A stretch of DNA of 64,000 nt. Source: Defluviitaleaceae bacterium. Its GTDB lineage: Bacteria; Bacillota; Clostridia; Lachnospirales; WRAX01. The notes under the pieces were generated by a model. That model made no database searches. It was not told the origin of the DNA and saw only the letters and a program-made list of their open reading frames with translations. Positions within the stretch are counted from its first letter, which is position 1. Each line of letters starts with the position of its first letter. The DNA lies in contig WRAC01000002.1 of the NCBI GenBank assembly GCA_009780415.1, positions 8,895-72,894 of the forward strand. The letters run 5' to 3'. Both the position numbers and the translations under genes were made by a program. Positions 40,326-60,113 of this stretch are shown in pieces.

Positions 40326-40352
40326 TTACTCCCACTCAATAGGTACAAGCTG
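40326..40352 (-). other. Displaced guaA-like 3' end (..QLVPIEWE-stop), the left attachment-site core
   Basis: The minus strand reads cag ctt gta cct att gag tgg gag taa. The intact guaA ends ..GTVEWE-stop at 58881. The shared core is gagtggga (40330-40337 and 58885-58892). Confidence 0.6.
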
Positions 40353-40399
40353 TCTATAAATCCCGTAATATCGGGGTTGATAAACTCACAAAGATAATT

Positions 40400-40423
40400 T
40401 GTACACAAATTTGTACTCAAAAA
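40400..40423 (+). repeat. 24-bp sub-terminal direct repeat (left copy), a candidate integrase arm-type site
   Basis: tgtacacaaatttgtactcaaaaa is identical to 58736-58759. It contains the near-palindrome gtacacaaatttgtac. Confidence 0.7.
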
Positions 40424-40638
40424 CATTTTTCATCTACATTTTTTCACAGTTTCGAGAGGAAAATATTTCGCCGACGTTCGCGTTGGTTTCGGTTCGTTTT
40501 GTATATTTTATAACAGAGTAGGGACGAGATAATAAATCCCTACACAACACCATTATATCATAAAGATATGCTATTTTCAAGCCTGCGGAAAAATTCATCA
40601 TAAACAAAAGTGTCCGACGGACAACCGATGGATAACAA

Positions 40639-40670
40639 AACCGCGCCCTTTTTTTAAGGTTTGCGCGGTT
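40639..40670 (-). terminator. Terminator of the SLH/beta-helix gene
   Basis: Minus strand: aaccgcgc-N16-gcgcggtt followed by ttgttat. Confidence 0.55.
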
Positions 40671-40736
40671 TGTCCGTTTTGCTTATAACCTTGTTTCCTA
40701 ATTATAATAAGCGTCTTTTATGGTTATTATGCGTCG

Positions 40737-42770
40737 TTATTGGGTTGAATTGTACATCTCGAATATACGGTTTACAAATGTCACCATTTCGCCCCGTGTA
40801 ACTTTTACGTCTGGGAGAAATAACACATCATCATTTATCCAACCTTGACCAACTGCGGTACGGATAAATATTTCACTCCAATGCCCTGCGATATTAATAT
40901 AATGTAACGGGACGGTATTATCAAGTTCAACGAATTGGCAAAAAAGCGTTATAAGCTCCGCCCACGATAAAAATTCGTATGGGTGATAACCGCCATTCCA
41001 CCCGTTTACAACACCGCAATTTGCTAATGTTGATACGGCTTCCGTAAACCACGCATTGTAAGGTACGTCATAAAATCTGCTTGTTCTAGTATAAACGGAA
41101 ATACGGCTCTCATTTGTTAATAAACGGTATATAATCATAGCCATTTCAGCCCTGTTAATTAATTGATTCGGTAAAGTTTGACCGTCAGCATATCCTTGTA
41201 AATAAGCCTTTTGGCTTGTATCAAGCACAGCACCGCCACGCATTAGGAGTTTAGGAGCTTGTGTCTGTATCGGTGTTGGTGTCGCTGTTGGCGTGGGAGT
41301 TGGCGGCGGTGTGGGGGTGATTGCATTGATATGTATATCTCTGTCACGGTTCGGGCTTGATGTATACGGTCTATATGTCGGTTGAGATTCCCATGTGTTT
41401 TCTGTCTCTGGCGACGAAGTAATACCCGGCGTAGGCTCTGGCGTAGATTGTATCGGCGGTGGAGTAGGCACAACTTTCGGCGTAGGTATATGCATGATTG
41501 ACGGCTCTATTGTTTGAGTTGGCGTGAGCGTAGGTTCTGGCGTTGGTGCTATTTCGGGGGTTGGTTCTGGTGTTATTGTTGGTATTGGTTCAGTTGTAGG
41601 CGTAGAACTCGGTGTAGGTTCTGTCGTAGGCTCTGGTGTAGGTTCTGTCGTAGGCTCTGGTGCCGGCTCTGGTGTAGGTTCTGTCGTAGGCTTTGGGGTA
41701 GGTTCTATCGTAGGCTTTGGGGTAGGTTCTGATGTGGGTTCTGGGGTCGGCTCTGGCTCTTGGGTAGGCTCTGGTGTTGGCGTGGGTTCTGGGGTCGGCA
41801 CAGGGGTCGGGGTGGGCTTTGCCGGAGGTATTAACGGCTCGGGTATTCTGTTGAGAACAGGAAAATAATAGTCGAGAATGTCGATAAAAACGATACTTGT
41901 TTCTTGATTGTCGGGTACTTCAGTACATTCTCTGATATTATCGCGTGTTAAGCGGTTTTCGGTTTCATCATAGAAAAACCCGGAGGAGCTTGTCCCGTAC
42001 ATACTTTTATAAAAATCATTATCCAAGATAACACGCAATATACCCGTGTTGTAAATGGTAGACGCTTCGATACGAGCGACGTTTTGAGAAAAAACATTCT
42101 CGTAATCGGCCGCACGGACGTAACCGCCGAGATTAACGATTGCTCCACCCCTTACTTGTGCCATGTTTTGGCTGAATCCCGTGCGGGTCATGGTTATGCT
42201 CCCGCCGTTGTTTTGTATCGCACCCCCAACCGCGCCGATATTATCCAAAAAATCGCAACTGTCAATAGTAATAGTCGCACCCGCTTCTACCGCGAATATA
42301 GCACCGTCTGTACTGACGTTTCTAAAAAAGTAACTGCTTTCAAGGTTCATATTACCGTTTACGGCATAAATTACGCTTCCGTTTTCTTCTGACCGATGAT
42401 TTATAATGTTAAGCATAGCCAGATTAGCATTGCTATATGATGTTATCAATCTGCCCCCGAAGGTGTCCCCACCATCGAAGCGAAGATATATCATACCCGT
42501 TTGCGAATCCCCCGGTAGAAGCACGAACATTGAACCCATGTAACCGCTATGCCGTTTTATTGTTTTGCCGGAAAAGTTCAATCGTGTGCCGTTCGGAATT
42601 TCTATGCGCCCACCAATGTATATAATATTTGACGTGTTAAATACTTCTATGAACTCCTCATAATTCGTAACAACCAGTCCGGCGTTTTCGTTCCCTACGG
42701 CGTTTACCTGTCCGAATAACGCAGATAAACACATAATAGCGGCAATAAATACCGCAATTCTCTTTTTCAT
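40737..42770 (-). CDS. Secreted beta-helix (Pmp-like repeat) surface protein with a Pro/Thr/Glu linker and C-terminal SLH domains
   Basis: Signal peptide MKKRIAVFIAAIMCLSALFGQVNA. Repeats of the GGAIxN type (VGGAIQNNGGSITM.., VRGGAIVNLGG). A linker of about 100 aa of (E/K)PTP units. C-terminal SLH-like repeats (LINRAEMAMIIYRLL, FYDVPYNAWF, VTRGEMVTFVNRIF). Confidence 0.75.
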   Translation of the reverse strand: MKKRIAVFIAAIMCLSALFGQVNAVGNENAGLVVTNYEEFIEVFNTSNIIYIGGRIEIPNGTRLNFSGKTIKRHSGYMGSMFVLLPGDSQTGMIYLRFDGGDTFGGRLITSYSNANLAMLNIINHRSEENGSVIYAVNGNMNLESSYFFRNVSTDGAIFAVEAGATITIDSCDFLDNIGAVGGAIQNNGGSITMTRTGFSQNMAQVRGGAIVNLGGYVRAADYENVFSQNVARIEASTIYNTGILRVILDNDFYKSMYGTSSSGFFYDETENRLTRDNIRECTEVPDNQETSIVFIDILDYYFPVLNRIPEPLIPPAKPTPTPVPTPEPTPTPEPTQEPEPTPEPTSEPTPKPTIEPTPKPTTEPTPEPAPEPTTEPTPEPTTEPTPSSTPTTEPIPTITPEPTPEIAPTPEPTLTPTQTIEPSIMHIPTPKVVPTPPPIQSTPEPTPGITSSPETENTWESQPTYRPYTSSPNRDRDIHINAITPTPPPTPTPTATPTPIQTQAPKLLMRGGAVLDTSQKAYLQGYADGQTLPNQLINRAEMAMIIYRLLTNESRISVYTRTSRFYDVPYNAWFTEAVSTLANCGVVNGWNGGYHPYEFLSWAELITLFCQFVELDNTVPLHYINIAGHWSEIFIRTAVGQGWINDDVLFLPDVKVTRGEMVTFVNRIFEMYNSTQ
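41510..41835. repeat. Tandem 12/24-nt coding repeats (EPTP linker)
   Basis: Reiterated ggttctgtcgtaggctctggtgta-type units on the plus strand. They produce spurious Gly/Ser/Val and Arg/Cys/Trp ORFs in other frames. Confidence 0.8.
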
Positions 42771-42838
42771 GGTTTCCCCTCCTGTTTTCTTTGGTTTAAT
42801 TTGGTATAGTTTAATCCTACAACCATTTCACCAAAAAA

Positions 42839-43192
42839 TCATTGCAAACTGGGTGGGTGATTTTTTCGCCAACGCCAGATTGTGGCATTATCGGCGGGGC
42901 AGTCCGCGCCGCCGCCGTTAAGTACATCATCAATGACCGCCGCCGCGTAATGCTTGCGTGGGCGCATGAAGTCGGGTATTTCTCTGTGTAGTGATTTGCA
43001 AACAGGACAGCGGACGCGGCGTAATAGGTAGACGGTAGCATTTCCGTCGTTGACGATAACGCGGCGCGGGCGCGAATCATAGCCGGAACATAAAGAGCCG
43101 CAGAGAGGGCAGAGCGGCGCGTCAAGGTTGCGAACGTGCAGAACGTCGGAATCGGGGTCTTTTACGAGATTGTAACGAGATATAATAATCAT
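42839..43192 (-). CDS. Zinc-ribbon protein (DUF6431-like)
   Basis: Two CxxC pairs (CPLCGSLC, CPVCKSLH) in a 117-aa protein. The family assignment is from memory of the pattern. Confidence 0.45.
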   Translation of the reverse strand: MIIISRYNLVKDPDSDVLHVRNLDAPLCPLCGSLCSGYDSRPRRVIVNDGNATVYLLRRVRCPVCKSLHREIPDFMRPRKHYAAAVIDDVLNGGGADCPADNATIWRWRKNHPPSLQ

Positions 43193-43324
43193 ACGGCTTT
43201 ATCACAGCCGTTTTATGAGATACCCCATAAACGCAAAAGCCCCGCAAAACGCAAAAGATTACAGCGGCAATATATACACCTCTGTATGGTATGCGTCCTA
43301 CGGGGTTATTTAGGTTCGTTCAAT

Positions 43325-44083
43325 TCAAAGCGAGCCGTTTTTATTTTCAATAATTTTTATATACCGTTCCAGTTCTCCGACCTCGTACCCCGCTATCAGT
43401 TCGGCAAGCGCGTCCGGCTTGTGCGGTTCGTTCCCGTAGTAGCTGTCGAAGCAGTCATAATATTTGCGCCTATCGGTGAATTTTATGTTGACGGGCAGGA
43501 ATCCCGCTTTTATCAATTCAAGGTTGATTATCAACCGTCCTGTACGCCCGTTGCCGTCAATGAATGGGTGTATACCCTCAAATCGGAGGTGAAACTCCGC
43601 TATCGCTTCTATGATGTGCCGCCCGCGCTTCATATCCTCGTATTCTGCGAGCAAGGCTTCCATTTGCGGCGCGATTAGGTACGGTTGCGGCGGTGTGTGT
43701 AAAGCCCCTTGAATCATCACCGGGACGCTCCTATATATACCCCTGTTTTCTGCGTCGCTCATCAATACAAGCGTGTGAATCTCTTTTATCCGGCGTTCTG
43801 TCAACGGGTCTGCTGTGTCGGAGATTTTAACAACATACTCGAAAGCGTCACGGTGTCCGATTGCGTCAAGGTGCATACGGAGCGGCTTTTCGCCGATTGT
43901 AATATCCTCTTGGAGAATGAGCGCGGTTTCCCGTAAGGTTAAGGTGCTTCCCTCTATGGCGTTCGTGTCGTAGGTAAATTCGATGTTAAATTCATTCCGT
44001 AACCGTTTCAATTCTCCGGCATTAAGAGGACGTAAAACGGCAAGCCGCGCCTTTAATTCGTTCAATTTTGAGTAATCAATCAT
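43325..44083 (-). CDS. Fic-family protein (second copy in the window)
   Basis: Fic motif HPFIDGNGRTGRLIINL. N-terminal TNAIEG inhibitory-type motif. ATG 44083 is preceded by AAAGGGGG and overlaps the upstream ORF stop by 8 nt (ATGATTGA). Confidence 0.85.
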   Translation of the reverse strand: MIDYSKLNELKARLAVLRPLNAGELKRLRNEFNIEFTYDTNAIEGSTLTLRETALILQEDITIGEKPLRMHLDAIGHRDAFEYVVKISDTADPLTERRIKEIHTLVLMSDAENRGIYRSVPVMIQGALHTPPQPYLIAPQMEALLAEYEDMKRGRHIIEAIAEFHLRFEGIHPFIDGNGRTGRLIINLELIKAGFLPVNIKFTDRRKYYDCFDSYYGNEPHKPDALAELIAGYEVGELERYIKIIENKNGSL

Positions 44084-44303
44084 TTTGCGCCCCCTTTCCT
44101 CTCTCCATAGCTTCATCAATGGCACGATTGACAAAACCGTTAAGGCTTTCGCCGTTCGATGTTGCATAATCCTTTATACTTTCCCGCTGACCTTTTTTTA
44201 CTCGAATGTTAAGCGTATCATAAGCCTTTGAATTCCACTTGTTTTTTACGGCTGTACTCGTATGGGTTTTACGCTTTTTATCCGTTTCAGTTATAACAAC
44301 CAC
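44076..44303 (-). CDS. Ribbon-helix-helix (Arc/CopG-like) small DNA-binding protein coupled to Fic
   Basis: ..KAYDTLNIRVKKGQRESIKDYATSNGESLNGFVNRAIDEAMER is a typical RHH beta-alpha-alpha pattern. Translationally coupled to the Fic gene. Confidence 0.6.
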   Translation of the reverse strand: MVVITETDKKRKTHTSTAVKNKWNSKAYDTLNIRVKKGQRESIKDYATSNGESLNGFVNRAIDEAMERGKGAQND

Positions 44304-44419
44304 CCACTTTTATATTATTTTTGGATAATCAATAACCGCACCATTATTATATACTACTTAATACAGTATGTCAAGAAAAAAGAAATTTCAAAAATAATAA
44401 AATATTTCTCAAAAAACAC

Positions 44420-44448
44420 TTGACATACTTAACACACCATGTTATACT
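44420..44448 (+). promoter_or_regulatory. Near-consensus sigma-A promoter
   Basis: TTGACA (44420-44425), 17 nt, TG-extended TATACT (44443-44448). Confidence 0.65.
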
Positions 44449-44596: not shown

Positions 44597-44863
44597 ATGA
44601 TAAACTTACAAGAAAAAATCAGAGAATACCGCGAGTTTAAGCGGTTAGCAGAGGAAGCGCAAACCGCCGCCGACAGCATAGCAGACGAACTAAAAGCGGC
44701 AATGCAGGAAGCGGGACAGGACAAAATGACAATCGGTGAGTATAAGCTCTCCTACACCGAAGCTACACGCGAAACCCTCGACAAGAAAAGATTGGAAGCA
44801 GACTTGGGCGACCTGTCCGACTACACGAAAGTCACAACCTACAAGCGGTTCTCGGTAGCATAG
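44597..44863 (+). CDS. Hypothetical protein (coiled-coil N-terminus)
   Basis: RBS CAGGAGG. 88 aa ending ..YTKVTTYKRFSVA. Proteins like it are recalled from firmicute mobile elements, with no function assigned. Confidence 0.5.
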   Translation: MINLQEKIREYREFKRLAEEAQTAADSIADELKAAMQEAGQDKMTIGEYKLSYTEATRETLDKKRLEADLGDLSDYTKVTTYKRFSVA

Positions 44864-44925
44864 GAAAAGCCCTTACATTAGCACCCGACCAAGAGTAACG
44901 ATGATAAGAGCTTTAACACCACCGC

Positions 44926-44964
44926 CGGAGCGGGGTAAATCAAGTATAGCACAGCCCCGCTCCG
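44926..44964 (+). terminator. Hairpin between small ORFs (weak terminator or processing site)
   Basis: cggagcgggg-N19-ccccgctccg followed by an AT-rich tract. Confidence 0.3.
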
Positions 44965-45001
44965 AATTACAATAAAATAATTATGAATGGAGCGTGAAAT
45001 T

Positions 45002-45205
45002 ATGTTGAACCCTCAAAGCCTGCCGAACGGCGGCGAGCAGTACGAGAAATATAAACCCGCCGGGCGCGGTATTGCACCCCGCTACGCATATGATTACAGG
45101 CATACCGACGGCGAGTTGTTCTCATGCGTTAAGCGGACGCTTGACGAGTGCCGCGCGGCGCGTGATGAATGGATAGCCAAGAAAGGAAGCGGCGGCGATG
45201 TTTGA
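45002..45205 (+). CDS. Hypothetical protein
   Basis: ATG 45002 follows GGAG. Contains ..YDYRHTDGELFSCVKRTLDECRAARDEW.. The track start is 44987. Confidence 0.45.
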   Translation: MLNPQSLPNGGEQYEKYKPAGRGIAPRYAYDYRHTDGELFSCVKRTLDECRAARDEWIAKKGSGGDV

Positions 45206-45386
45206 AAAATTGTTAAAAGAAATCGAGTACGCCAAGACCGCAACTTTTAAGCGTCAATCTCTTTACCACGAATACGGGCGTATCACAATGGCGCGGGAGT
45301 TGGGCGCAATAACTCAAAATGAGTATATGGAGCTTAACCACGCTTGCGTCTATGACGGGATTAACAATCCGAAACATTACGATTAA
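45198..45386 (+). CDS. Hypothetical protein
   Basis: 62-aa ORF whose start overlaps the upstream stop. Confidence 0.4.
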   Translation: MFEKLLKEIEYAKTATFKRQSLYHEYGRITMARELGAITQNEYMELNHACVYDGINNPKHYD

Positions 45387-45471
45387 CCGAAAGTGAGCAT
45401 TAATAAAAATCGTGCCGGGCGGGAGCTTATCCGCTCGGCGCGGCAAACCAAAAACCGAAAGGGGAATAATT

Positions 45472-46026
45472 ATGTATCCAAATCTTAAAGCGGAGTTCGG
45501 AATCGGAGGGCGGCGTTTCTGCGGAGTAAGCCCGGACCCCCTCTCTATGAATGGAATCATTAAAAAGCCGTTTTTGCTTGCCGTGTTGGGCGATATGGAA
45601 TCCCTCACCGATAGGCAAGCGCAAATAATCGCCGACGCATTGAACCAGTTAAGCCATATCGGGAATTATTGGCGACCCGCAATAACAGGCGACTATCTGC
45701 TTTCGCCTACGTTGACAATGTTTATCGCTGAAACTCACGAAAGGGAACATTTTAATTTATTTACCTTGATTGATATGCAGGGAATTATTGAGCAATACTG
45801 CGACGAGAGTAACTTCGTGTTTGAGTATCTCGACGACGACGAGCGGGACTTCCAAAAGATGTTTTATCGACATATACGGCGCAATGTAGCGGAATGGCTA
45901 CCTGTTGTCGAAAGGGCATTGAATGAGCCTATAAGCTATGCGGAATATCGTTGTATGTACAGTCATATCAACTTTGCGTATCATCATTTAGCACAGGTTG
46001 TTGAAAGGGGTATGCAGTATGCGTAA
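45472..46026 (+). CDS. Hypothetical protein
   Basis: ATG 45472 follows AAAGGGGA (MYPNLKAEFG..). The track start is 45412. Confidence 0.45.
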   Translation: MYPNLKAEFGIGGRRFCGVSPDPLSMNGIIKKPFLLAVLGDMESLTDRQAQIIADALNQLSHIGNYWRPAITGDYLLSPTLTMFIAETHEREHFNLFTLIDMQGIIEQYCDESNFVFEYLDDDERDFQKMFYRHIRRNVAEWLPVVERALNEPISYAEYRCMYSHINFAYHHLAQVVERGMQYA

Positions 46027-46273
46027 AGAGCGAATCGTAATCCCCATAGACAACCCGGCAGGACTGCGGGCGCATGAAGTGTTGGTAAAAGTCGCAATGA
46101 ACCAGTTAAGACGGGCGCAGGAAGCGGTACAAGTATTTTTAGATGAAACATTCCCAAATGTTGAAATCATCGACGAAAAGGTTATGCACGAAAGCAAATA
46201 CTGGGCGTTCCTTGACGGCGGCACAACCGTAGTCTACGGTTATAAAACAAAAACGATAGAAGTTATAAATTAA
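46019..46273 (+). CDS. Hypothetical protein
   Basis: ATG 46019 follows AAGGGG and overlaps the upstream stop. 84 aa. Confidence 0.4.
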   Translation: MRKERIVIPIDNPAGLRAHEVLVKVAMNQLRRAQEAVQVFLDETFPNVEIIDEKVMHESKYWAFLDGGTTVVYGYKTKTIEVIN

Positions 46274-46347: not shown

Positions 46348-46773
46348 TTAATCGTCGAGCTTATCGAACAACCCCTCTTTTACGGCTTTTTTGCATATTA
46401 CACCGTATATCCGTTTTACTGAATCGGTTGACAAGTCAAGCTCCGATGCGATTTCTTTCCATGTCAGACAATTTTCAAAACGTAAATTTAATAATCGCAT
46501 ATGCTCATAGGAAAGTGAAAATAAAAACATATCAAATTCGGCGCGTTGTTTAAGTAAATCATCTGTGCTTTTTTGCATATCAATAATATTTACCATTGTA
46601 TTATCGAAGCGGTGCGGGTTTAACTGTGATTTCGGCATACCGTCGATTTTGGGATTGCCTGCGGTAGCGGAAGCGTAAAGCGACAAAAGCCGCTTATTTG
46701 CGGCGGCAATTTTGTCATGCGCTCTATACAATTTTCTGAAATGCTCGTTTTTATCGTTCACACCCGCTACCAC
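46348..46773 (-). CDS. Sigma-70 region-4-type HTH protein (phage late-transcription regulator-like, ArpU/RinA class)
   Basis: C-terminal ..LLNLRFENCLTWKEIASELDLSTDSVKRIYGVICKKA.. is a region-4 HTH. Its size (141 aa) and phage context fit. Confidence 0.55.
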   Translation of the reverse strand: MVAGVNDKNEHFRKLYRAHDKIAAANKRLLSLYASATAGNPKIDGMPKSQLNPHRFDNTMVNIIDMQKSTDDLLKQRAEFDMFLFSLSYEHMRLLNLRFENCLTWKEIASELDLSTDSVKRIYGVICKKAVKEGLFDKLDD

Positions 46774-46837: not shown

Positions 46838-49800
46838 TTATGAAAATGCCCCCCTCATGTTACGGATTCTTAACGATTGCGTCCTGTCTACCATATCCGC
46901 GACGACACGGGGTTCGCCCGACGTGTCGTTAATGTTGAACGTGGATTTTTGGTCGTAGGCATAGGAACGGTTATCGTAGGAAATATTGTTGTTTGACGTG
47001 GTGTATGACGCTTGGGTAGCTTGCCCCATTTGCCCCATTACCCTGTTCGCGTTGTCAAGAAACTCACCCATTTTCGCACCCAGTCCGGCGAGGTCTACGC
47101 CGCCGACGGTAGAGGTCGCGGCTTCCGCGCCTTTTCCAAGAATGGCAACGATTTGGGCGATTGAACCGCTGATGTTTTGCAATATCGCGCTGACTTTCTC
47201 AATGCTCGCGCCGCCGTCCTGTTTCTTAAATTGGTCGGAAACTTTATTAATCCATTCGGTATTCTTTTCAAGGGGTACGACAGCTTCCGCGCCCGTACCT
47301 TCCAAAAGTCCTACCTGCCCCTTGCGAAGAACGCCGCCCTTTGCCAGTTCCGGGATTTGCGGCGTATTGATAATAGGCATCCAGTCAAACGGTTTAAGAC
47401 CAAATATGCTAATGTCTTTGATTTTTTGTAATGCCGCATTAATTCCGTCAAAGGGGAGAGTGATAACGGTATTGATTCCGCGAATAATGCCATTTACAAT
47501 ATTCTTAAAGGCTTCCAGTATTCCGTTCCCTATTCCGCTGAATATTTCGCCACCCTTTGAAAATACGTCCTTGACACCCTGCCATGCGCCGGAAAATATA
47601 CCTATGAACCAGTCTGCGATTCCAATAAACGGGGCTTTTATACTGTCCCATATCCCGGCAAAGTAATCACCGACCGCGTTCCAAATGCCCTTGATACCCT
47701 CCCATGCGTTTTTGAAAATATCTTGAATTGTGTTCTCGCCGCTAAACGCGCCGATTATGCTATCCCATATACCAGAGAAAAAATCACCGACAGCGGAGAA
47801 TATGCCTTTGATACCCTCCCATGCCGCGCCGAATAATCCCTCGAACCACCCGGCGACATCGGGAAACATTCCCTTGATTTTGTCCCAAATACCGCCAAAG
47901 AACTCGCCAACAGCCGCGAAAGCGGTTTTTATGCCCTCCCAAGCACCAGAGAACAGCCCGGAGAACCATTCTGCCACGCCCGAAAACGCGCTCATTATAC
48001 TGTTCCAAATGCCTACGAAGTAGTCCCCGACCGCGTTCCAAATGCCGACTATTCCGTCCCAAGCAGTAGAAAATATATCACCTATCGTGTTTTCGCCGGA
48101 GAACGCTCCTATGATACTGTTCCAAACGCCAGTAAAGAACTCGCCAACGGCGGCGAAAATGCCCTTAATGCCCTCCCACGCACCGCTGAACAAGTCCTCA
48201 AACCATTCGGCTACGTTGGGGAACTTCTCTTTTATCCCCTGCCAAACGCCGCCGAAAAACTCTCCGACGGCGGCAAACGCGCCCGTGATTCCGTCCCATG
48301 CGCCAGTAAACAAACCCGTAAACCATTCCGCAACGCCAGAAAACAATTCGGATATTTTATCCCATATCCGGGTAAAAAACGCGGCGGCGGTCGCCTATGC
48401 GCCGGAGATACCCTCCCACGCTCCGCTGAACTTTTCGGAGAACCATGTCGCTACACCCGTAAACGCGGCTGATATGCTTTCCCATATTCCAGAGAAGTAC
48501 GCGCCAACCGCGTCCCAGATACCTTTAATGCCCTCCCATGCGGTTATAAAGATGTCTTGGATTGTATTTTCGCCCTTGAAAGCACCGATAATGCTGTCCC
48601 ATATACCCTTGAAAAAATCTCCGACGGCGGCGAAAACTCCCTTGATACCATTCCATGCTGATGTAAAAGTATCTTCAAACCACCCGGCGACGTTTGGGAA
48701 TTTTTCTTTTATGCCGTCCCAGATACCTCCGAAAAATTCACCGACTGCCGAGAACGCGCCTTTTATGCCGTCCCAAGCCTTAGAAAAAATGTCGGTAAAC
48801 CATGTGCCGACGGTTGAGAATATATTTTTTATGCCCTCCCAAACATCGGAAAAGAAGCCCGGTATCGCTTCCCATATGCCCTTGACCCAATCGACGAATT
48901 TAGATATGGCTTTCTTTATGTTCTCCCACACATTTATGAAGAAATTTCGGAAGCCCTCGCTATTGTTCCATAGCAGAATGAATCCGGCGACAAGCGCGGC
49001 GATAAGCCCTATGATAATGCCGATAGGGTTTGCGTTCATAGCCGCGTTAAGAAGCCATTGCGCGGTGGTGAGAGCCGTCTTGACGGCTTTTACAGCCGTT
49101 ATAGCCGTTTTGTACGCGATTATTGCGCCGACTAATGCAAATACAACCTCTTTCGCGCCCTTTAACTGAATGAACCATGTGACTGCGTTGGCAACTTTGG
49201 TCGCAACATCAGCCAATAGCCCTATCGCGCCGGGTAATGCGTCGCTGATAAGCCAAGTTAAAAAAGGCGATAAGATGTCCGCTCCGTCCATAAAGCCGCC
49301 AAACAGCGTTGACAAAACAGTACCGATTGCGGCAAATATGCTTTTAATCGCGCCGCCTACTTTTTCAAAGGTGGCTTTGAAGTTGTCAATCGCACCACTT
49401 TCTTGGAGCGTGTTCCAAAAGTTGCGTACCCATGATATGACGCGCAAGATACTAAGCCTTATAGCGTCCATTGCTCTCTCGAATCCCTGTTTAAGTTTTT
49501 CGATTACGCCGCCCTGCTTGTTAAGTTCTGTCCATATATCTATAAGCCATTGCCAAAACCCGCCGAGAAGCGCGTCCCCGCCGTCCAAATATGTGAAAAA
49601 ATCCTCCGCAAGCAACATCAGAGCCGAAAATATCATAATAAGTTTACCTACAAACCCGGATTTAATGAAAAATGCTAAAGCCGACAATATTGCCATAACG
49701 CCCTTTACTTCTGTGGGAATCATATCAAACACGCGCTTAATTACGTTAAATATAATCCCCGCGCCGCGTATGATTGTGCCGCCGAGTTGTACCAACCATG

Positions 49801-51969: not shown

Positions 51970-51980
51970 GTATACCCCTC

Positions 51981-52727: not shown

Positions 52728-53198
52728 GTTTCAACCCTCCCCACCGCTTCAATGACAGCCCGCCGCGCTTCCGGGTACGGTTCAAGGGCGGCAAGTATCA
52801 CGTTACGTAGGTTCACCCACTCCGGCGCGATAATTATGTTGTTGACCGTTTGCGATTGGAGTTCTCCTGTAATTTTGGCGTAAAGTTCCGTTATCCCTCT
52901 AAGCTCCCGTATAGCGGCAATAGCGGCGTTGAGGTTGTCGGCTTTTAATGCTTTTGAGTAAATATCCTCCGCTTTGGCGTTCAAGGCAGAAACACGTCCC
53001 ATAAGACTATCAGCGGCGGCGATTTTTTGCGCGTCCTGCGCTTTGGAGAGTTGCGACGGTATATGCTTCTTGTGGCGTTGCAAGGACGATATTGTAAGCC
53101 CGTGCGCCTTTGCTAATCGGTCGCGGGACACCCTCTAAAAGCTGTTCGTTAATCGCGTTCGCTTCCGCATGAGCGCACACGGTACATTGTTTAGCCAT
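52724..53198 (-). pseudogene. Terminase small subunit-like gene with a frameshift
   Basis: ATG 53198 gives MAKQCTVCAHAEANAINEQLLEGV. The expected continuation SRDRLAKAHGLTISSLQRHKKHI... lies in another frame (track ORF 52724-53131). The switch is near 53125-53135. Confidence 0.55.
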
Positions 53199-53643: not shown

Positions 53644-54492
53644 TTATAAATTTTGCTCTATAACGCTGTTAATACGCCAGTTTTTAGTTCTATCTTTACC
53701 GATTGCAAGCGCATATTTACCCGACCGTTCTAATATGCGGCTTCCCGTCGCTTCGTCGAAATTGATTACTTCGTTTATGGTGAACTCGCTTGATATTAAA
53801 GTCGTGAGCTTAGAATTGTTATACCGAAAGTTAATTATTTCAAACGCGAGCTTAATATCTGCGTCGGTAGGGGACGCGCCTTTTTTAGTTTTAAGGAAAT
53901 CGTCGATATATAACACTTGCGTTTCACGCAAATCCTTGATTGCCGCGTCATAATCTGCGTCGTCGTTTACGAGAGCTTTCAATTTCTTGGATTCCATATC
54001 CCATACCATGTAACGAGCAGGTATACCTTGATTTAACAATTCCCCAACTATCGCAGTACAAAGGTGAGTTTTACCCGCACCGACTTGACCTCCTGCTTAA
54101 AACCATTTACCGATGGATTCAGCCAAAAAAGCCCGCGCTATTTCTTTTATCTTCCGTTGCCAAGCATTAGGGGTTAAATATAAATCAAAGGTATAGCGCG
54201 TCATAAGCTCGCTTAACCCGCTCCGCTCAATTTGACGTAAATTTTTGCGCGTTTCCATGCACGAACAAGTCTGCATAACTTCGTGATTATCTTCGCGTAA
54301 AATTGCAATATAACCCCGATTCAAGCAGAATAAACAGTCATACCCAGTCAAATCCCCGACGGATTTATTTATTGATTCAATGCGACGGCGAGCAAGCTCC
54401 CCGATGTCATAAGGCGTTTGCGGCATAGTTTGCATATTTCGTAACAACTCCGAGAAAGGTGTTAATTTATCCTGCATTGAAAGAACCTCCAT
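53644..54492 (-). pseudogene. DnaC/IstB-like helicase-loader ATPase interrupted by an in-frame TAA
   Basis: The track ORFs 54097-54492 and 53644-54039 are in frame. Read-through gives ..ESIGKWF-TAA(54097-54099)-AGGQVGAGKTHLCTAIVGELL.., so the stop sits just before the Walker A. Walker B is VLYIDDF. Confidence 0.7.
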
Positions 54493-54493: not shown

Positions 54494-55294
54494 TTAATTT
54501 ATTTCAATACCGTATATCGGCTCGTTTGACGGGGTAGGTTGGTTAAGGCTCGCGGTCGGTGTTATATCGTCGTCCCAACACCCGCCGTTAATCCATGTTG
54601 CGGGGTTCGGGATATATTGCCCATTATCGCGTTGCCATTTATCGCTATGCTTTGCCGCTTCGACCGCTTCGATTATCTTTTTATGAAGCTCTGCCGATGG
54701 TTTCGCCTTTTTCCATGCAGTAAACGCCGTTTTCTTTGCCGTTTTCTTTGGATATATCGCCCAAAACTCGTTAAAGCGTTCTTCGAGAACCGACACCTCC
54801 CGCGCCTGCGGCGCGTCCTCGTCGCCGCTCGCGGCGATAGAGGGGTTGTTCTTTACATTCTTTAATTCTTTATTATTCTTTACATTCTTGATAGTGGTTA
54901 GGTCTTGGTTAGCTGTTGGTTGGCTGTTGGTTAGGCTTTGGTTATCATGTTGGTTAGGTGCATTGTTAAAACCTTGATAAATCCCCCAATTTAGTATGTT
55001 TATGAACAACCCCGTCTTGGTTGATTGGTAGGTTAGAAATTCGTATTTAGTAAATCGGACTAACGCAGTTCTAACATTTTGCCTACTCACACCTGCGGCG
55101 TTTGCAAGGCTCGTTGAACTCGTAATAAATTGACCGGGCTGTATTGCAAACTTTTTCCCTTGCCATTCCCATTCCTTTTCTGTATGGCTTGCCAAAAGTA
55201 ATATCGTTATCAATACAGCTTTTTGCTCCGCTGATGATTTACACCATATCGGCTTTTCTAATAATTCGCGGTAAATCTTGACCCAACCCGTCAT
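54494..55294 (-). CDS. Phage replisome-organizer / DnaD-like replication protein
   Basis: N-terminal GWVKIYRELLEKPIW.. wHTH-type organizer domain. C-terminal FNEFWAIYPKK..AFTAWKKA.. phage-conserved C-terminus. Confidence 0.6.
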   Translation of the reverse strand: MTGWVKIYRELLEKPIWCKSSAEQKAVLITILLLASHTEKEWEWQGKKFAIQPGQFITSSTSLANAAGVSRQNVRTALVRFTKYEFLTYQSTKTGLFINILNWGIYQGFNNAPNQHDNQSLTNSQPTANQDLTTIKNVKNNKELKNVKNNPSIAASGDEDAPQAREVSVLEERFNEFWAIYPKKTAKKTAFTAWKKAKPSAELHKKIIEAVEAAKHSDKWQRDNGQYIPNPATWINGGCWDDDITPTASLNQPTPSNEPIYGIEIN

Positions 55295-55323: not shown

Positions 55324-55467
55324 TTATATATCGCTGTCGCTCGCTCCGTGAACGTAGTCATGGACGGCTTTAAGGGCGATTTTTGCAGACTTGATGCGCG
55401 ATTGTTGTTCCCGAATGAACGGCAAGGCTTCCTCGCTTGAAGTCGGAAGAAGGTCTAATAATTTCAT
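55324..55467 (-). CDS. Small hypothetical ORF (47 aa)
   Basis: ATG 55467 overlaps the upstream stop (ATGA). It fills the gap in the early operon and falls below the track length cutoff. Confidence 0.3.
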   Translation of the reverse strand: MKLLDLLPTSSEEALPFIREQQSRIKSAKIALKAVHDYVHGASDSDI

Positions 55468-55661
55468 GTAAGCTCCCCCCGTAAAAACAATTCAAATTTA
55501 CCTTGATGTATTAAGACTTTCACACCTACACGGATAAAAAAAGGAATTTCTTCTTTAACCCACCGTCTTATCGCCCGTTCCGATATGCCATATTCACGGT
55601 ATTTCGCCGCCGTTTTTGGAATGGTTTTCATATCCGATATATTATTCATTGTTTCCGTCAT
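55464..55661 (-). CDS. Excisionase/MerR-type HTH protein
   Basis: ..KTAAKYREYGISERAIRRWVKEEIPFFIRVGVKVLIHQGKFELFL.. matches the excisionase-family DNA-binding fold. Confidence 0.55.
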   Translation of the reverse strand: MTETMNNISDMKTIPKTAAKYREYGISERAIRRWVKEEIPFFIRVGVKVLIHQGKFELFLRGELT

Positions 55662-55830
55662 GCGGGTTCACCCCCTGTTGCGTGGCTTGCTCCTGTTGCT
55701 CTTGTAAGACTTTCCGTTCCCAATAACGGCGTGTATGCTCGCGGCATTTGTCGCGGTTCTTTGCGTTCCAATATTTCTTGTATTCGCGGCGTTTCTCGGC
55801 GGCTTGTTCGGCTAAACTTTTTTCGTTCAT
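55642..55830 (-). CDS. Small basic protein, first gene of the leftward early operon
   Basis: RBS AAGGAGGG. 62 aa, Lys/Arg/Glu-rich. Confidence 0.4.
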   Translation of the reverse strand: MNEKSLAEQAAEKRREYKKYWNAKNRDKCREHTRRYWERKVLQEQQEQATQQGVNPHDGNNE

Positions 55831-56005: not shown

Positions 56006-56767
56006 ATGTACGATAAAGAATTAGCAGAAATAGGAAAACGCATTGAAACATTACGCAAGGGTAAGGGTTGGACACAAGAAATACTCGCGGATAAACTCAA
56101 CATCGCCCGCAACACACTTACTAAGTTAGAGGGCGGTTTTCGGGATTTCAAGAGTACAGAGCTATTAAACATCGCAAAAGTGCTTGATGTGTCAACAGAT
56201 TATTTACTCGGCTTAACGGAAATGAGCCGTGCAGACGCTACGGCGCGTGATGTAAGCGAGCGTTACGGGCTATTTGAAACACCTCTAAACGAATTATCGA
56301 ATATGCCCACATCGGAGAAGCCATTCGGAGCAGAACACGCGCAAGCAATGAGCAGGCAAGCCGAAACAATGGCATACCGCGCAATATTTAACTTACTTTT
56401 GAGTAGTGAACATGGTAAAAAAGCTCTCAAACTTCTTACGAGTTATTACTTCGCAAACCTCGACGACAGAAGCAAAGAGAGCATACCCGCCTTTATTCTT
56501 CCGTGGGATTTACCGGACGGCGGGACATGGTTAGATACCGCTATGGTAGCAGACGATTTACAACGTGAAGTGTTGTTAATCCTTGCTAACGACGAATTAA
56601 GGGCTTTAAGACTTGAACTCGCCGGGATAGATACGACTTACCCGCAAAAATACAGCTATGCAAAACCACCAAGCACAGAAACGGTTATTAAAGCGCAAGC
56701 CGCTTATGACGCACGAAACCCGCACATAAAAAAAGGGGGGGCAGACGATGGCAAAGAAAACAAATAA
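56006..56767 (+). CDS. XRE-family HTH repressor (cI/ImmR-like) with an unassigned C-terminal domain
   Basis: ATG 56006 follows ACGGAGG. HTH is GWTQEILADKLNIARNTLTKLEGG. The track start is 55931. Confidence 0.75.
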   Translation: MYDKELAEIGKRIETLRKGKGWTQEILADKLNIARNTLTKLEGGFRDFKSTELLNIAKVLDVSTDYLLGLTEMSRADATARDVSERYGLFETPLNELSNMPTSEKPFGAEHAQAMSRQAETMAYRAIFNLLLSSEHGKKALKLLTSYYFANLDDRSKESIPAFILPWDLPDGGTWLDTAMVADDLQREVLLILANDELRALRLELAGIDTTYPQKYSYAKPPSTETVIKAQAAYDARNPHIKKGGADDGKENK

Positions 56768-58211
56768 CGGCTTGCCCTCCGGCGTGTCGGCTCGCGCTAA
56801 TCGTCCGGGATTGTATATGCTTCGAGTTATGATAAACGGACAGCAGTTCACCGAATACTACCGCACAGCCGAAACAAGCAAAAAGAAATTACAAAGCGAA
56901 TTACAAAAGGTGTTCGACGCTTTCAAGGAACGCGCTGAACGCGGCACACTTAAAAATAGCGACATTACCGATAAAAACACATTCGCACAAGCGGTTGAAT
57001 GGTTCACCGAAATGCGTAAACTCGATATACGGGAGAGTACACAGCTTGCAGACAACTTTATATTTGAACATTACCTTATTCCGCGCCTTGCACCTTATAA
57101 GCTCCGCGAGATTACCTCCCCGATGATTACGAAACTACTTGCGGAACTGCTCGAAAAGGGCGGCGGCGGTGGTCGGGCGTTATACGCCGCTCGCGAAGAA
57201 TTTATTAAACTGATGTACGACACCAAACCCAAACGGACGGACGGCGGGTTTAATAAAGTAGCGCGGGAAATTAACATCGGCAAAGACAATACGTTCATAC
57301 GTGTAAGGTACGGGGAGAACTGTGACAAGGAAATCGCGGAAAAGGTAGCAAAGTATTACGGCGTTCCACTTCTAACGGCATTTGAAAAGAAAACCACTAC
57401 AAAACCTCTTTCGGCACTATATGTATCAAAAATCACATATACATTGTCTGCTCTGTTTACGGCTTGCGTCAAGAATGGCGTTTTATTTCAAAATCCTGTT
57501 ATGAACGCCACAAAGCCACGTATCGGCGAAAAAGACATACCTGCATACCTTGACAACACGCAAATACCGATATTCCTTGACGCGCTCGGCGAGCTTGATA
57601 TTGATAACTCAATCCGTGTTTCCTTGACCTTAATGTTAATGCTCGGCTTGCGTAGTGGCGAAGCTCGCGGGCTTCGTTGGGTAGATGTTGATTTCAATAC
57701 GGGGATTGTCAGCATTGAAAAAAATTGCGGTGATACCTTTGACGGATTAGCATTGACCGACCTAAAAACGAAACGCTCCCGGCGCAAGCTCCCGTTATCG
57801 CCCATACTTCACGATATTTTAATTGAGCATAACAAGCGGTTGAACGAATACTCCCGTTCGCTCGGTTCAATATGGCAGGATAATGGTGTTATATGCCCGA
57901 ACACAACAGGCGGGTTAATGGCAAAGTCTACGCCCAACAAAGCAGTTAAACGTATCTTGACCGCAAGAAAGGAGTTACCCCGAAAACTTCATGCTCATTC
58001 ATTGCGCCACAGTTTTATATCCCTGCTTATCTCAAATGGGCTTGACTTAGTAACGGTTGCCGCCCTTGCAGGTGATACGATTGAGATTATTAACAAACAC
58101 TACGCACACAGCTTCGCGGAACGCCGCGCCGCCGCTATGGACGTTGTAGGGGCTTCATTCGCGACATTAACTGAAAACCATGTACCGAGTAAAGTCCTAC
58201 TAATAAAATAA
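56748..58211 (+). CDS. int: Tyrosine-type site-specific integrase
   Basis: Catalytic-domain motifs LRSGEARGLRW (Arg), HSLRHSFISLL (H-x-x-R) and INKHYAH (Tyr). Adjacent to the element end next to guaA. Confidence 0.9.
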   Translation: MAKKTNNGLPSGVSARANRPGLYMLRVMINGQQFTEYYRTAETSKKKLQSELQKVFDAFKERAERGTLKNSDITDKNTFAQAVEWFTEMRKLDIRESTQLADNFIFEHYLIPRLAPYKLREITSPMITKLLAELLEKGGGGGRALYAAREEFIKLMYDTKPKRTDGGFNKVAREINIGKDNTFIRVRYGENCDKEIAEKVAKYYGVPLLTAFEKKTTTKPLSALYVSKITYTLSALFTACVKNGVLFQNPVMNATKPRIGEKDIPAYLDNTQIPIFLDALGELDIDNSIRVSLTLMLMLGLRSGEARGLRWVDVDFNTGIVSIEKNCGDTFDGLALTDLKTKRSRRKLPLSPILHDILIEHNKRLNEYSRSLGSIWQDNGVICPNTTGGLMAKSTPNKAVKRILTARKELPRKLHAHSLRHSFISLLISNGLDLVTVAALAGDTIEIINKHYAHSFAERRAAAMDVVGASFATLTENHVPSKVLLIK

Positions 58212-58222
58212 GGAGGGGCAGT

Positions 58223-58660
58223 ATGCAACCCGAATATGCTGAAAACGAAGTTTACAAACTAATTGCTTCATGGGTTGAATGTTGCGGTTATAAGATTCGA
58301 TACAAAGTGCGTGAAAATGAAGAAAACGCCGCATATACTCTCCCAGACGAATACGGAGAAAGTTCTATCCAAATGTACACCAACAACGAAATATATATCC
58401 AATTCGGGAAGTATTTCGGAACACCAAATTGCCATGATGATATATACACAGAAATTGGAGCTTCCAATGTTCTTGCACATGAATTAGCACATCAAATATT
58501 TACCAATGTTTCAAATAAGCCTTTTGCAAAACTTTTCAGCATAAATCCCGAATATGAAGCAAATAGGGTAATGGTCGATAATGAAGAAGCGTGTGACGCA
58601 TTTGGTAATTTTCTTTACACGTTAGCAGAACGTATTATCAATGGAGCAGTAATAAATTAA
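58223..58660 (+). CDS. HExxH metalloprotease-like protein (ImmA/IrrE-like candidate anti-repressor)
   Basis: The NVLAHELAHQIF zinc-binding motif in a 145-aa protein, directly downstream of the repressor and integrase. Confidence 0.5.
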   Translation: MQPEYAENEVYKLIASWVECCGYKIRYKVRENEENAAYTLPDEYGESSIQMYTNNEIYIQFGKYFGTPNCHDDIYTEIGASNVLAHELAHQIFTNVSNKPFAKLFSINPEYEANRVMVDNEEACDAFGNFLYTLAERIINGAVIN

Positions 58661-58677
58661 TCCACATAGAATAAAAT

Positions 58678-58705
58678 AAGCCCTTGCCGATTATGGCAGG
58701 GGCTT
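58678..58705. terminator. Bidirectional terminator at the island edge
   Basis: aagcccttgcc-gattat-ggcaggggctt with T-rich tracts on both strands. It can serve the ImmA-like gene (+) and guaA (-). Confidence 0.7.
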
Positions 58706-58735
58706 AAATATTTGTTGGGTATTTCTGTTTATTCG

Positions 58736-58759
58736 TGTACACAAATTTGTACTCAAAAA
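58736..58759 (+). repeat. 24-bp sub-terminal direct repeat (right copy)
   Basis: Identical to 40400-40423. A partial third copy ttgtgtacaaatg lies at about 58773-58785. Confidence 0.7.
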
Positions 58760-58880
58760 GATATGAAAAATTTTGTGTACAAATGAAAAATGATGAAATG
58801 ATACGCAATGGTCGAAGGGCATAAAGCGCGGTGTTGTGAGAGTTAGCGGCAAGTCGTGAAACGGCGTGAAATTTAAAATG

Positions 58881-60113
58881 TCATTCCCACTCCACTGTAC
58901 CCGGCGGCTTCGCGGTAATGTCGTATACGACACGCCCAACACCCGGTATTTCATTTATTATGCGGGAGGCGGCGGTAGCTAGGGTTTTATGTGAAAGGGG
59001 GCAATAGGCGGCGGACATGAAGTCTTGCGAGTAAACGGCGCGGAGGGCGATGACCGTTGCGTATGAGCGTTTGCCGGCGAAAACACCGACCGCGCGGAGA
59101 CCTGTGTGTACGGCGAAATACTGGTCGGGGCGGCGGCGAAGGCGCGAGACTTCGTGGCAAAAGATGGCATCCGCAAGGCGCAGGGTTTCGAGCTTTTCTT
59201 CCGTTACCTCGCCCAGTACGCGCACGCTAAGACCGGGGCCGGGGAAAGGCTGTCTGTTTATGTATGCCTTTGCCAACCCGAGTTTACGACCCGCATCCCG
59301 TACCTCGTCTTTGAAAAGCATCGAAAGCGGCTCCACAAGTTCTTTAAACCCCATATTTTTTGGCAACCCGCCGACATTGTGGTGGCTTTTGACAAGATTT
59401 GAGCCGTCCGCACCTGATTCTATAATATCGGCATAGTTTGTCCCCTGCGCAAGGAACGGGATGTTCAGCTTTGCCGCCTCCTCGCGGAACACGGCAATAA
59501 ACTCGGCGCCGACAAGCTTACGTTTTTCTTCAGGATCAATAACGTGTTTGAGCTTAGACAAAAACCGTTCACGCGCGTTTACGCGGATCATTGTCAAATC
59601 CATACGCTTGAAAGCGGACTCCACTTCATCGCCCTCATTCAACCTCATAAGCCCATGATCAACAAAAACACAAACCGTACGCCCGGGTATGGCGCGCGAC
59701 AAAAGCGCCGCGCACACCGATGAGTCCACCCCGCCGGATAAAGCGAGCAGCACCCGCTCACCGCCTGTTTGTGCGCGTACGATGTCGATTTGCTCCGCGA
59801 TATAATTCTCTATGTTATAATTTCCTGTGGCTTTGCATATATCAAATAAAAAATTGTTAAGGATACATGATTCTATATCCGCGCCATCATTGATTTTCAG
59901 CAACGGTATGCCGAGCTTTGTAATATCAGGGTTCAAATCCTGCGCGTCATCCGTTGCTGCCGCAATAACTATGCCAATTGGGCTTATGTCTTTTACAGCC
60001 TGCCCTTTTATCGTCTCCGGCTTTATTACGGAATACACACCCGCTTGTCTGATGCTGCGGGCGATATCCTTCGCATTTCCGCCAAAATTAAGAACCAATA
60101 CGGTTTCTCTCAT
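58881..60113 (-). CDS. guaA: GMP synthase, ATP-pyrophosphatase type, with a vestigial glutamine-amidotransferase domain
   Basis: PP-loop LALSGGVDSSV, KSHHNVGGLP, QPFPGPGL and C-terminal ..VVYDITAKPPGTVEWE. The N-terminal region is only about 100 aa and lacks the GxCxG nucleophile and the HPE segment. The likely start is MRETVLVLNFGG at 60113; the track starts at 60185. Confidence 0.85.
   Translation of the reverse strand: MRETVLVLNFGGNAKDIARSIRQAGVYSVIKPETIKGQAVKDISPIGIVIAAATDDAQDLNPDITKLGIPLLKINDGADIESCILNNFLFDICKATGNYNIENYIAEQIDIVRAQTGGERVLLALSGGVDSSVCAALLSRAIPGRTVCVFVDHGLMRLNEGDEVESAFKRMDLTMIRVNARERFLSKLKHVIDPEEKRKLVGAEFIAVFREEAAKLNIPFLAQGTNYADIIESGADGSNLVKSHHNVGGLPKNMGFKELVEPLSMLFKDEVRDAGRKLGLAKAYINRQPFPGPGLSVRVLGEVTEEKLETLRLADAIFCHEVSRLRRRPDQYFAVHTGLRAVGVFAGKRSYATVIALRAVYSQDFMSAAYCPLSHKTLATAASRIINEIPGVGRVVYDITAKPPGTVEWE

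Follow-up and report, generated by a model that had tools for sequence, protein, structure and literature searches.

A probable defective mosaic integrative element in the last codons of guaA in an uncultured Defluviitaleaceae bacterium

Introduction

Why would a single stretch of bacterial DNA carry two ends of the same gene, 18.5 kb apart? The question arises in a 64-kb stretch from an uncultured Defluviitaleaceae bacterium (hereafter the window, to whose positions all coordinates refer). The GMP synthase gene guaA lies on its minus strand (58881–60113; 410 aa, with a Pfam GMP_synt_C match). The product ends in ..AKPPGTVEWE and is followed by a TGA stop codon at 58881–58883; an identical protein, from the metagenome-assembled genome (MAG) of a Defluviitaleaceae bacterium, is named glutamine-hydrolyzing GMP synthase by its source. 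The reverse complement of 40326–40346 reads V-P-I-E-W-E-TAA, which is a second guaA-like tail. The DNA between the two tails (40338–58884) is very probably a defective mosaic integrative element, inserted by a site-specific tyrosine integrase into the last codons of guaA.

Integration at the Glu-Trp-Glu end of guaA is documented in Staphylococcus, Streptococcus, Enterococcus and Proteobacteria, and the staphylococcal island SaPIbov1 is assigned to this gene. Tn5801-like elements occupy the 3' end of guaA with 11-bp repeats (PMC4844618), and streptococcal integrative and conjugative elements (ICEs) use guaA among other housekeeping-gene ends (PMC4701971). These reports uphold the original prediction, made from the sequence alone, that the locus is a known hotspot. 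In the figure legend of a further study, guaA is named as a target group of integrases, and the tree concerned includes those of SaPIbov1 and SaPIbov2 (PMC5341023). The closest precedent is GIsul2 of Gammaproteobacteria, which integrates at exactly 5'-GAGTGGGA-3' in guaA, and for which integrase- and att-dependent excision and integration have been shown experimentally (PMC9376610).

Junctions at the two ends of the island

The features that bound the island, as read here, are the following.

40283–40316, minus strand: displaced native guaA terminator, host DNA just outside the element (13-bp stem and U-run)
40326–40346, minus strand: displaced guaA-like tail VPIEWE-TAA at the attL junction (from the sequence)
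40330–40337, no strand: attL core TCCCACTC (GAGTGGGA in guaA sense), homologous to the 12–16 bp repeats of the related elements L014, L016 and L021
40338–40445, plus strand: P' arm, with a 61-nt spacer, tandem sites TTGTACACAAA/TTGTACTCAAA (40399–40421) and the conserved motif TTTCATCTACATTT (40428–40441), from alignment with attL of L014, L016, L021 and L011
58678–58884, plus strand: P arm, with a conserved hairpin (58678–58705), tandem arm-type sites (58735–58757), an inverted copy (58772–58782) and a spacer of about 100 nt, from alignment with seven relatives
58881–60113, minus strand: target gene guaA, intact, of which the element would supply only the last base and the stop codon
58885–58892, no strand: attR core TCCCACTC, within the last guaA codons (from the sequence)

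In the displaced tail, the bases 5' of the core (in guaA sense) are derived from the element, while the stop codon and the sequence downstream are the original host end. Its 19 nt ATTGAGTGGGAGTAATTAA recur without change where guaA ends naturally in a relative whose GuaA is 62% identical, and the displaced tail therefore has the form of a genuine guaA end. The hairpin behind it has a folding energy of -22.2 kcal/mol (z = -4.3), which none of 200 shuffled sequences equalled. Both the second tail and its minus-strand terminator thus lie where they had been placed from the sequence.

The shared core octamer that had been proposed for the two junctions is likewise present: GAGTGGGA occurs exactly twice in the window, once per junction. 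About two copies are expected by chance in 128 kb of two-strand sequence, and consequently the match carries no weight alone. A longer repeat, absent from the first reading, lies inside both ends. An exact 24-nt direct repeat, TGTACACAAATTTGTACTCAAAAA, is found at 40400–40423 and 58736–58759, once in each arm, and consists of two tandem TTGTACNCAAA units; a third unit, inverted, lies at 58772–58782. Together with the relatives described below, this repeat raises the two-tail pattern above what chance would give. All five TTGTACNCAAA units with at most one mismatch between 40 and 59 kb fall within the two arms, and the whole window holds 11 such matches, compared with 4.5 ± 1.9 in shuffled sequence.

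The 24-nt repeat could itself be proposed as the true att core, with boundaries at 40400 and 58759. This is ruled out by L014, L016 and L021, in which the synteny break and the direct repeat are at the guaA core, and the arm repeats lie about 61 nt and about 100 nt inside.

Joining the sequences outside the cores gives a reconstructed attB of ..GGT ACA GTG GAG TGG GAG TAA followed by the terminator (..ACAGTGGAGTGGGAGTAATTAAAC..; ..GGTACAGTGGAGTGGGAGTAATTAAACGAACCCCG..). Joining those inside gives a reconstructed attP of ..CCT ATT GAG TGG GAA TGA.. (..CCTATTGAGTGGGAATGACATT..; ..GTACCTATTGAGTGGGAATGACATTTTAAATTT..). The spacer of the P arm ends in the guaA stop codon supplied by the element.

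Base composition also changes at the island, which had been described as more AT-rich than its surroundings. Its G+C content is 45.6%, against 50–52% in the flanks, and it falls below that of every 18.5-kb window to its left (minimum 48.4%). Two further stretches of low G+C (0.41–0.46 versus about 0.51) are found at 1–3000 and 13000–16000.

The guaA gene beside the island is intact and full length for its lineage. In the 410-aa product, Pfam detects PP-loop and GMP_synt_C domains and no GATase domain, and the N-terminal ~110 residues resemble a truncated amidotransferase without the catalytic part. Short GuaA proteins (403–420 aa) are also found in related MAGs (P0003, P0053, P0075 and L016), and the 410-aa form is therefore a lineage trait.

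An integrase family with a shared attachment-site architecture

56748–58211, plus strand: tyrosine integrase, 487 aa (Pfam Phage_integrase, 6e-18, and a SAM-like domain)

The integrase gene ends 670 bp from the guaA stop codon. About 90 homologues were found in metagenomes and MAGs, most of them 66–85% identical, and the family is labelled at source as Bacillota, Bacteroidia and Synergistaceae MAGs. No family member was found in IMG/VR, either by integrase search or with degenerate core and P'-arm patterns, and a 14-mer search there gave random matches only. The phage and plasmid collections held nothing above about 30% identity to the integrase, and the best plasmid matches cover the catalytic domain only. 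Searches of IMG/VR and of protein homologues found no complete-prophage relative that uses this integrase.

In seven of ten genomic contexts (the window, L012, L014, L016, L021, L022 and L023), the integrase gene is convergent with the 3' end of guaA; L023 is included in this count, its guaA being fragmented in a long-read contig. The remaining three lie elsewhere (L013 beside recR; L011 and L015). The GuaA proteins of the seven guaA-adjacent contexts range from 403 to 517 aa, and the flanking genes differ between hosts. Three of the relatives are complete elements, each bounded by a direct repeat that contains the core: L014 (9.3 kb; 13 bp, TACTCCCACTCAA), L016 (9.2 kb; 12 bp, TCACTGCCACTC) and L021 (8.1 kb; 16 bp, TATTCCCACTCGATAG).

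The ends of the window island align with those of its relatives at both attL and attR, in unrelated hosts and with different cargo. At attL, the core is followed in this family by (A/G)ATAGG, about 61 nt of spacer, a tandem pair of repeats and TTTCATCTNCATTT. At attR, the integrase stop codon is followed by a conserved hairpin, the tandem pair, one or two copies in inverted orientation and, after about 100 nt, the core. The P arm of L013, beside recR, matches up to AAAATGTCATTCC (..TCATTCC) and then gives way to a different host gene, which places the crossover within the core.

The arm repeats are the same on both arms of one element and different between elements. The repeat is TTGTACNCAAA in the window, GGGTACAAA in L011 and L023, TGTAGYCAAA in L012 and L022, TGTAGNCCA in L013, TGTGTGCCA in L014 and L021, and a TGTAG variant in L016. 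The type of repeat co-varies with the first ~40 residues of the integrase. Across the N-terminal 75 alignment columns, integrases of the same arm type are 80–84% identical and most pairs of different type 53–70%, while the rest of the protein is 65–86% identical in pairs with different arm types. Lambda-type integrases read arm-type sites through an N-terminal arm-binding domain. The matching of repeats within each element, together with their co-variation with the N-terminus, therefore identifies them as arm-type integrase sites, which the N-terminal domain of the integrase probably binds. Since the repeats are arm-type sites and the breaks in the relatives lie at the core, the boundaries first proposed for the island are right, and they match the att layout of L014, L016 and L021. 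The proposal of a site-specific mosaic island in the 3' end of guaA gains its support from this conserved att architecture and from the integrase family context.

The cargo of the relatives is varied. A DUF3987 primase-helicase with small open reading frames (ORFs) is carried by L014, L015, L021 and L023. L016 has a prim-pol/helicase, a small terminase subunit (TerS), a 421-aa large subunit (TerL) and toxin–antitoxin pairs, with no capsid genes. L014 also has homologues of the window's sigma-like regulator and Fic/antitoxin pair, and L012 and L022 carry a TraG/TrwB-like protein. The family backbone is that of small satellite-like or mobilisable islands.

Insertion would accordingly involve binding of the integrase N-terminal domain to the tandem arm-type repeats on both attP arms, and strand exchange within GAGTGGGA, in the final Glu-Trp-Glu codons of guaA. 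The element would bring a replacement guaA end (A followed by TGA), mimicking Ile-Glu-Trp-Glu-stop, so that GMP synthase stays full length, and the native TAA stop codon and terminator would be left at attL, 18.5 kb away.

Several observations concern the integrase family itself. In L011 (3929–4064), from a MAG that its source labels Synergistaceae, an attL-type junction follows immediately on an integrase of 78% identity, in the order arm repeats, 57 nt and CTATTGAATGGGAGTAG. The att site is thus inverted relative to the integrase gene when compared with all other members, and the second end of the element lies beyond the limit of the contig. The window integrase exceeds typical phage integrases by about 100 aa. 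The additional segment (approximately residues 135–265, with a GGGGG run) separates the SAM-like from the catalytic domain, and the uniform length of about 485 aa suggests that it is conserved across the family. Integrases 75–80% identical to the window integrase are labelled as coming from Bacteroidia, Synergistaceae, Oscillospiraceae, Gracilibacteraceae and Defluviitaleaceae MAGs; either the host range is very broad, or mobile DNA is often mis-binned.

Gene content of the island

Searches of the island ORFs with Pfam, PHROGs and PADLOC identified the following genes in addition to the integrase.

40737–42770, minus strand: secreted protein of 677 aa with a Pro/Thr-rich linker and a C-terminal SLH anchor (Pfam SLH, E = 4e-8)
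42839–43192, minus strand: DUF6431 protein (Pfam PF20020, E = 4e-25)
43325–44303, minus strand: Fic protein (43325–44167, longest ORF; Pfam Fic, E = 6e-21) and an overlapping upstream partner of ribbon-helix-helix (RHH)/Arc-like type (44076–44303)
44597–46273, plus strand: small ORFs, namely an 88-aa RecE-like C-terminal fragment, DUF3873 and unknowns of 62, 204 and 91 aa (Pfam, PHROGs)
46348–46773, minus strand: sigma-70 region 4-like regulator, 141 aa (Pfam Sigma70_r4, 4e-5; phrog_36, 1.7e-12)
46838–50407, minus strand: tail tape measure of about 1189 codons, with an in-frame TAG at 48395–48397 (both halves match tape-measure PHROGs)
50426–50935, minus strand: tail assembly chaperone (Pfam Phage_TAC_15; phrog_1688)
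51358–52727, minus strand: TerL as two ORFs, ATPase (51981–52727) and nuclease (51358–51969) (Pfam Terminase_6N and 6C; phrog_7579 and phrog_27743)
52724–53198, minus strand: TerS-like gene with an apparent frameshift near 53120–53131 (three-frame translation; directly upstream of TerL)
53644–54492, minus strand: DnaC-like helicase loader, with an in-frame TAA at 54097–54099 (phrog_50)
54494–55294, minus strand: DnaD/phage O-like replication initiator (phrog_270, 1.6e-32; weak Pfam Phage_rep_O match)
55464–55830, minus strand: Xis-like helix-turn-helix (HTH) gene (55464–55661; Pfam Tn916-Xis and HTH_17, both weak) and a small conserved ORF (55642–55830)
56006–56767, plus strand: cI-like HTH repressor (Pfam HTH_3, 7e-10; phrog_8; a 253-aa gene call in L001)
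58223–58660, plus strand: 145-aa ORF with an HExxH motif (from translation)

The repressor gene is divergent from the Xis/replication operon, and its 3' end overlaps the start of the integrase gene. The small ORF at 55642–55830 is shared with L011, L015 and L016. Further ORFs of 71 aa and 65 aa lie between TerL and the chaperone and between the DnaC-like loader and the TerS-like gene, respectively. The HExxH ORF has no family match, and none of the relatives examined has such an ORF at the same position. No portal, capsid, protease, tube, sheath, baseplate or lysis gene was found among the island ORFs with Pfam and PHROGs, and the same searches found no relaxase, coupling protein or type IV secretion genes. 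The first reading of the gene content, from integrase to tape measure with additional cargo and neither capsid nor lysis genes, agrees with these results.

The RHH/Arc-like partner of the Fic protein has weak Arc/TacA Pfam matches, and the Fic region matches two candidate defence families of PADLOC, PDC-S04 (1e-37) and SoFic (3e-25). A homologous Fic pair is present in L014 (4283–5210 and 941–1750 being the stretches concerned), where an SduA_C (Shedu-type) gene lies just outside attL. The guaA hotspot may collect defence genes.

Lesions and origin of the phage modules

Two of the phage-type genes are interrupted by nonsense codons and a third appears frameshifted, none of which was part of the first reading. 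The two DnaC-like ORFs are in one frame, with the TAA just before the Walker A motif GAGKTH; separately, the halves score 23 and 57 bits on phrog_50, and joined they score 122 bits as a single stretch. The two tape-measure ORFs also share a frame, with a single TAG between them, and a repeat motif runs through the TAG. The closest relative, L054, has one uninterrupted 985-aa tape measure, homologous over its whole length.

In the TerS-like gene, the reading frame apparently shifts after about 24 codons, with a Cys-rich N-terminus in one frame and an HTH-like remainder in another. PHROGs gave no family match even after repair of the frame, and both the identification as TerS and the frameshift are putative, being read from position and translation.

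Stop-codon recoding fails as a general explanation of these lesions: one of the stops is TAA, which to our knowledge is not a recoded stop, there is an apparent frameshift, and a tRNA scan of the window detected no tRNA and hence no suppressor tRNA. An Rfam search of the window likewise gave no match. The same lesions occur in independently assembled copies at 99.97–100% identity.

The split TerL might be taken for another pseudogene. This was rejected on homologue lengths: among the best 150 homologues of the ATPase ORF, most are stand-alone proteins of 250–280 aa, and a minority are fused forms of 440–500 aa. The profile that it matches, phrog_7579, has only 239 positions, and the nuclease ORF has its own ribosome-binding site. 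Such a two-gene terminase family appears to be widespread. A search of IMG/VR with the ATPase gave only relatives at no more than 26% identity.

The tail genes have a different source. Identity to L054 is 73% in the chaperone and the N-terminus of the tape measure, and 85% at the tape-measure C-terminus. In L054, portal, protease, major capsid, sheath and tube genes lie upstream of the chaperone, and baseplate hub, wedge and fibre genes lie downstream of the tape measure. The chaperone/tape-measure block of the window is therefore an isolated piece of a contractile tail, and not of a siphovirus. For TerL, the closest relative is L064, a phage other than L054.

The int-cI-xis-att backbone would thus come from a family of 8–9 kb satellite-like elements. 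To this would have been added the DnaD/DnaC module, the TerS-like gene, the two-ORF TerL and the chaperone and tape-measure fragment, along with accessory cargo (the SLH surface protein, the Fic/RHH pair, the DUF6431 protein and the sigma-like regulator). Two nonsense mutations, an apparent frameshift and the absence of virion and lysis genes would inactivate the replication, packaging and tail functions. Given these lesions and the lack of other virion and lysis genes, the element cannot form its own particles. The integrase (full length for its family), the Xis-like gene, the repressor, the cores and the arm sites look intact at the sequence level, and excision, possibly with helper mobilisation, would still be possible. 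The original prediction had offered either a heavily deleted siphovirus prophage or a satellite. Each is true in part: the satellite-like character stands for the integrase and att module, and the phage genes are remnants, but the siphovirus assignment falls with the sheath, tube and baseplate genes of L054.

Evidence against the insertion and its defective state

A number of results weigh against the reading of the island as a defective insertion. An exact search of metagenome contigs for the reconstructed attB junction gave 0 matches, as did one of viral contigs for the reconstructed attP junction, so that no circular form was seen. The exact GuaA protein occurs on contigs from four samples, all of them occupied by the island. 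The nearest other GuaA proteins are 58–62% identical and have unrelated neighbourhoods; with no synteny around them, no attB can be read from these relatives. We therefore infer insertion from architecture and not from a presence/absence polymorphism. In addition, the shared core of the window element is only 8 bp, which is shorter than in its relatives.

The original host junction is also not cleanly defined, as the left flank is degraded and shares a motif with L014. Between 37296 and 40329, the flank holds a transposase-like remnant after lacZ (approximately 37300–37680), a ferredoxin-like ORF truncated at its N-terminus, a gene for a Fic protein of 350 aa, and other truncated fragments, among them a PhnB-like one. 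The shared motif is a tandem, GTTATCAAAT(C/T)GTTATCAA, at 40250–40268, about 61 nt outside the attL core and beyond the terminator. The tandem GTTATCAA motif recurs at the same position outside attL of L014 (2119–2137), whose host guaA is very different. IMG/VR contains more than 120 exact copies of the 18-base tandem pattern, in varied contexts and none near a guaA core. The motif may have been left by an earlier occupant of the hotspot.

Two further points bear on the defective state. Homology to L054 starts at the start of the chaperone and stops at the stop codon of the tape measure, and these clean limits at gene boundaries are tidier than random deletion predicts. L016, moreover, has TerS and TerL without capsid genes. 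Some of the phage genes may consequently be working satellite equipment rather than debris.

Look-up of a left-flank protein returned only contigs occupied by the island or contigs that break at 37.7–38.6 kb, and all conspecific contigs are 99.7–100% identical to the window. Samples with this population are ERZ27257304, JGI 3300010167, SRR10512951, SRR5215140 and ERZ27257297, the last with a variant of 99.7% identity on a contig that stops at 38626. The guaA protein, searched against metagenome contigs, gave only one distant fragment. The contigs from other samples break specifically at 37.7 and 38.6 kb. Earlier insertions at this hotspot may have left the degraded flank behind. Two contigs with the closest GuaA (62%), L009 (11254–11258) and L010 (5834–5863), end 4 and 29 bases past the guaA stop codon, and such breaks would fit polymorphic insertion there too.

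Alternative explanations

The island could be a working satellite of the type of phage-inducible chromosomal islands (PICIs), in which TerS and TerL redirect packaging, the chaperone and tape measure alter or complete the contractile tail of a helper, and the TAG codon is read through only if the helper brings a suppressor. Such an element would share the int-cI-xis backbone and att sites of the 8–9 kb satellite-like relatives, one of which, L016, combines a primase-helicase with TerS and TerL and lacks capsid genes. It would also explain why the chaperone/tape-measure block is cut cleanly at gene boundaries, and it accords with a two-ORF TerL that is intact and normal for its family and with the apparently intact integrase, Xis-like gene, repressor and att sites. 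However, the DnaC-like loader is cut by a TAA before the Walker A motif, the TerS-like gene is apparently frameshifted, the window has no tRNA or suppressor, and 18.5 kb is about twice the size of the complete relatives. Furthermore, we know of no satellite that encodes a tape measure. A functional satellite is thus very unlikely.

A tandem integration at guaA is an equally unlikely explanation. Here, a satellite (from the integrase to TerL) would have been joined by a contractile-tail prophage, with later deletion of the internal att site and most of the prophage. The closest relatives of the two blocks, L064 for TerL and L054 for the chaperone and tape measure, are indeed separate phages that have no further genes in common, many elements of the family make repeated use of the guaA site, and decayed, accreted DNA with an insertion sequence fragment and truncated genes lies beyond attL. 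Against this, no core or arm-type repeat was found inside the island, including between TerL and the chaperone, where the two elements would meet, and illegitimate or homologous phage recombination explains the pattern without tandem integration.

That there was no insertion at all, the second EWE tail being due to chance in an ancestral gene order, is effectively refuted: the octamer is expected about twice per window by chance and no database searched holds an empty site, but this account leaves unexplained the 24-nt arm repeat at both ends, the homologous attL/attR architecture in elements of unrelated hosts with different cargo, the adjacent integrase and the drop in G+C, the strong orphan terminator directly after the second tail, and the arm type that tracks the integrase N-terminus.

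Relation to known elements

The defective mosaic element shares with GIsul2 its target gene, position and core octamer, and both lie downstream of an intact guaA. They differ in host phylum and in cargo, as GIsul2 carries sul2/CR2 and plasmid-type genes and not phage genes. The window integrase is at most about 30% identical to anything in the plasmid and phage collections and is therefore probably not a close homologue of the GIsul2 integrase. Tn5801-like elements and guaA-targeting ICEs are conjugative, whereas the window island has no conjugation genes by Pfam and PHROGs and its cargo is of phage type; the family relatives L012 and L022 do have a TraG/TrwB-like gene.

With PICIs, the element shares the layout of integrase, repressor and xis, divergent transcription, and an att site in a housekeeping gene. 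Its relatives are 8–9 kb long and carry a DUF3987 primase-helicase, sometimes TerS/TerL, and accessory genes. PICIs are about 8–15 kb in size and have no virion structural genes apart from those that redirect packaging. L014, L016 and L021 fit this description, while the window element, at 18.5 kb and with a chaperone and tape measure, does not. Nor does it have the functional replication genes of its own that mark PICIs, since its DnaC-like loader is interrupted. DnaD/DnaC takes the place of a primase in it.

As in cryptic prophages, the phage modules of the window element are patched together, wide gaps and nonsense and frameshift lesions are present, and the copy is uniform across every sampled population member. 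In contrast to them, its integration module is that of a satellite-like family. A complete prophage would have portal, capsid, tube, baseplate and lysis genes, none of which Pfam or PHROGs detected among the island ORFs, and which L054 has around the homologous block.

Implications

Decayed mosaics of prophages and satellites are commonplace, and earlier work has established the targeting logic at guaA, including the octamer itself. The novelty lies in the integrase lineage and the host. The finding therefore adds little that is conceptually new. It cleanly illustrates the convergence of independent elements on the tail of a single housekeeping gene, because the same octamer is used by an integrase lineage without a close phage or plasmid match in the records searched. 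For annotation, 40338–58884 can be treated as mobile, defective DNA and guaA as intact.

A more far-reaching possibility, which we consider unlikely, is that the window element is a still-mobilisable member that captured packaging and tail-length genes from a contractile-tail helper, within an undescribed and widespread family of guaA-targeting satellite-like elements with lineage-specific pairs of arm sites and N-terminal domains. If true, these pairs would constitute natural orthogonal recombination specificities on one shared core. The roughly 90 integrases, with four to five arm-repeat types that match N-terminal variants, provide a data set for the study and engineering of arm-site specificity.

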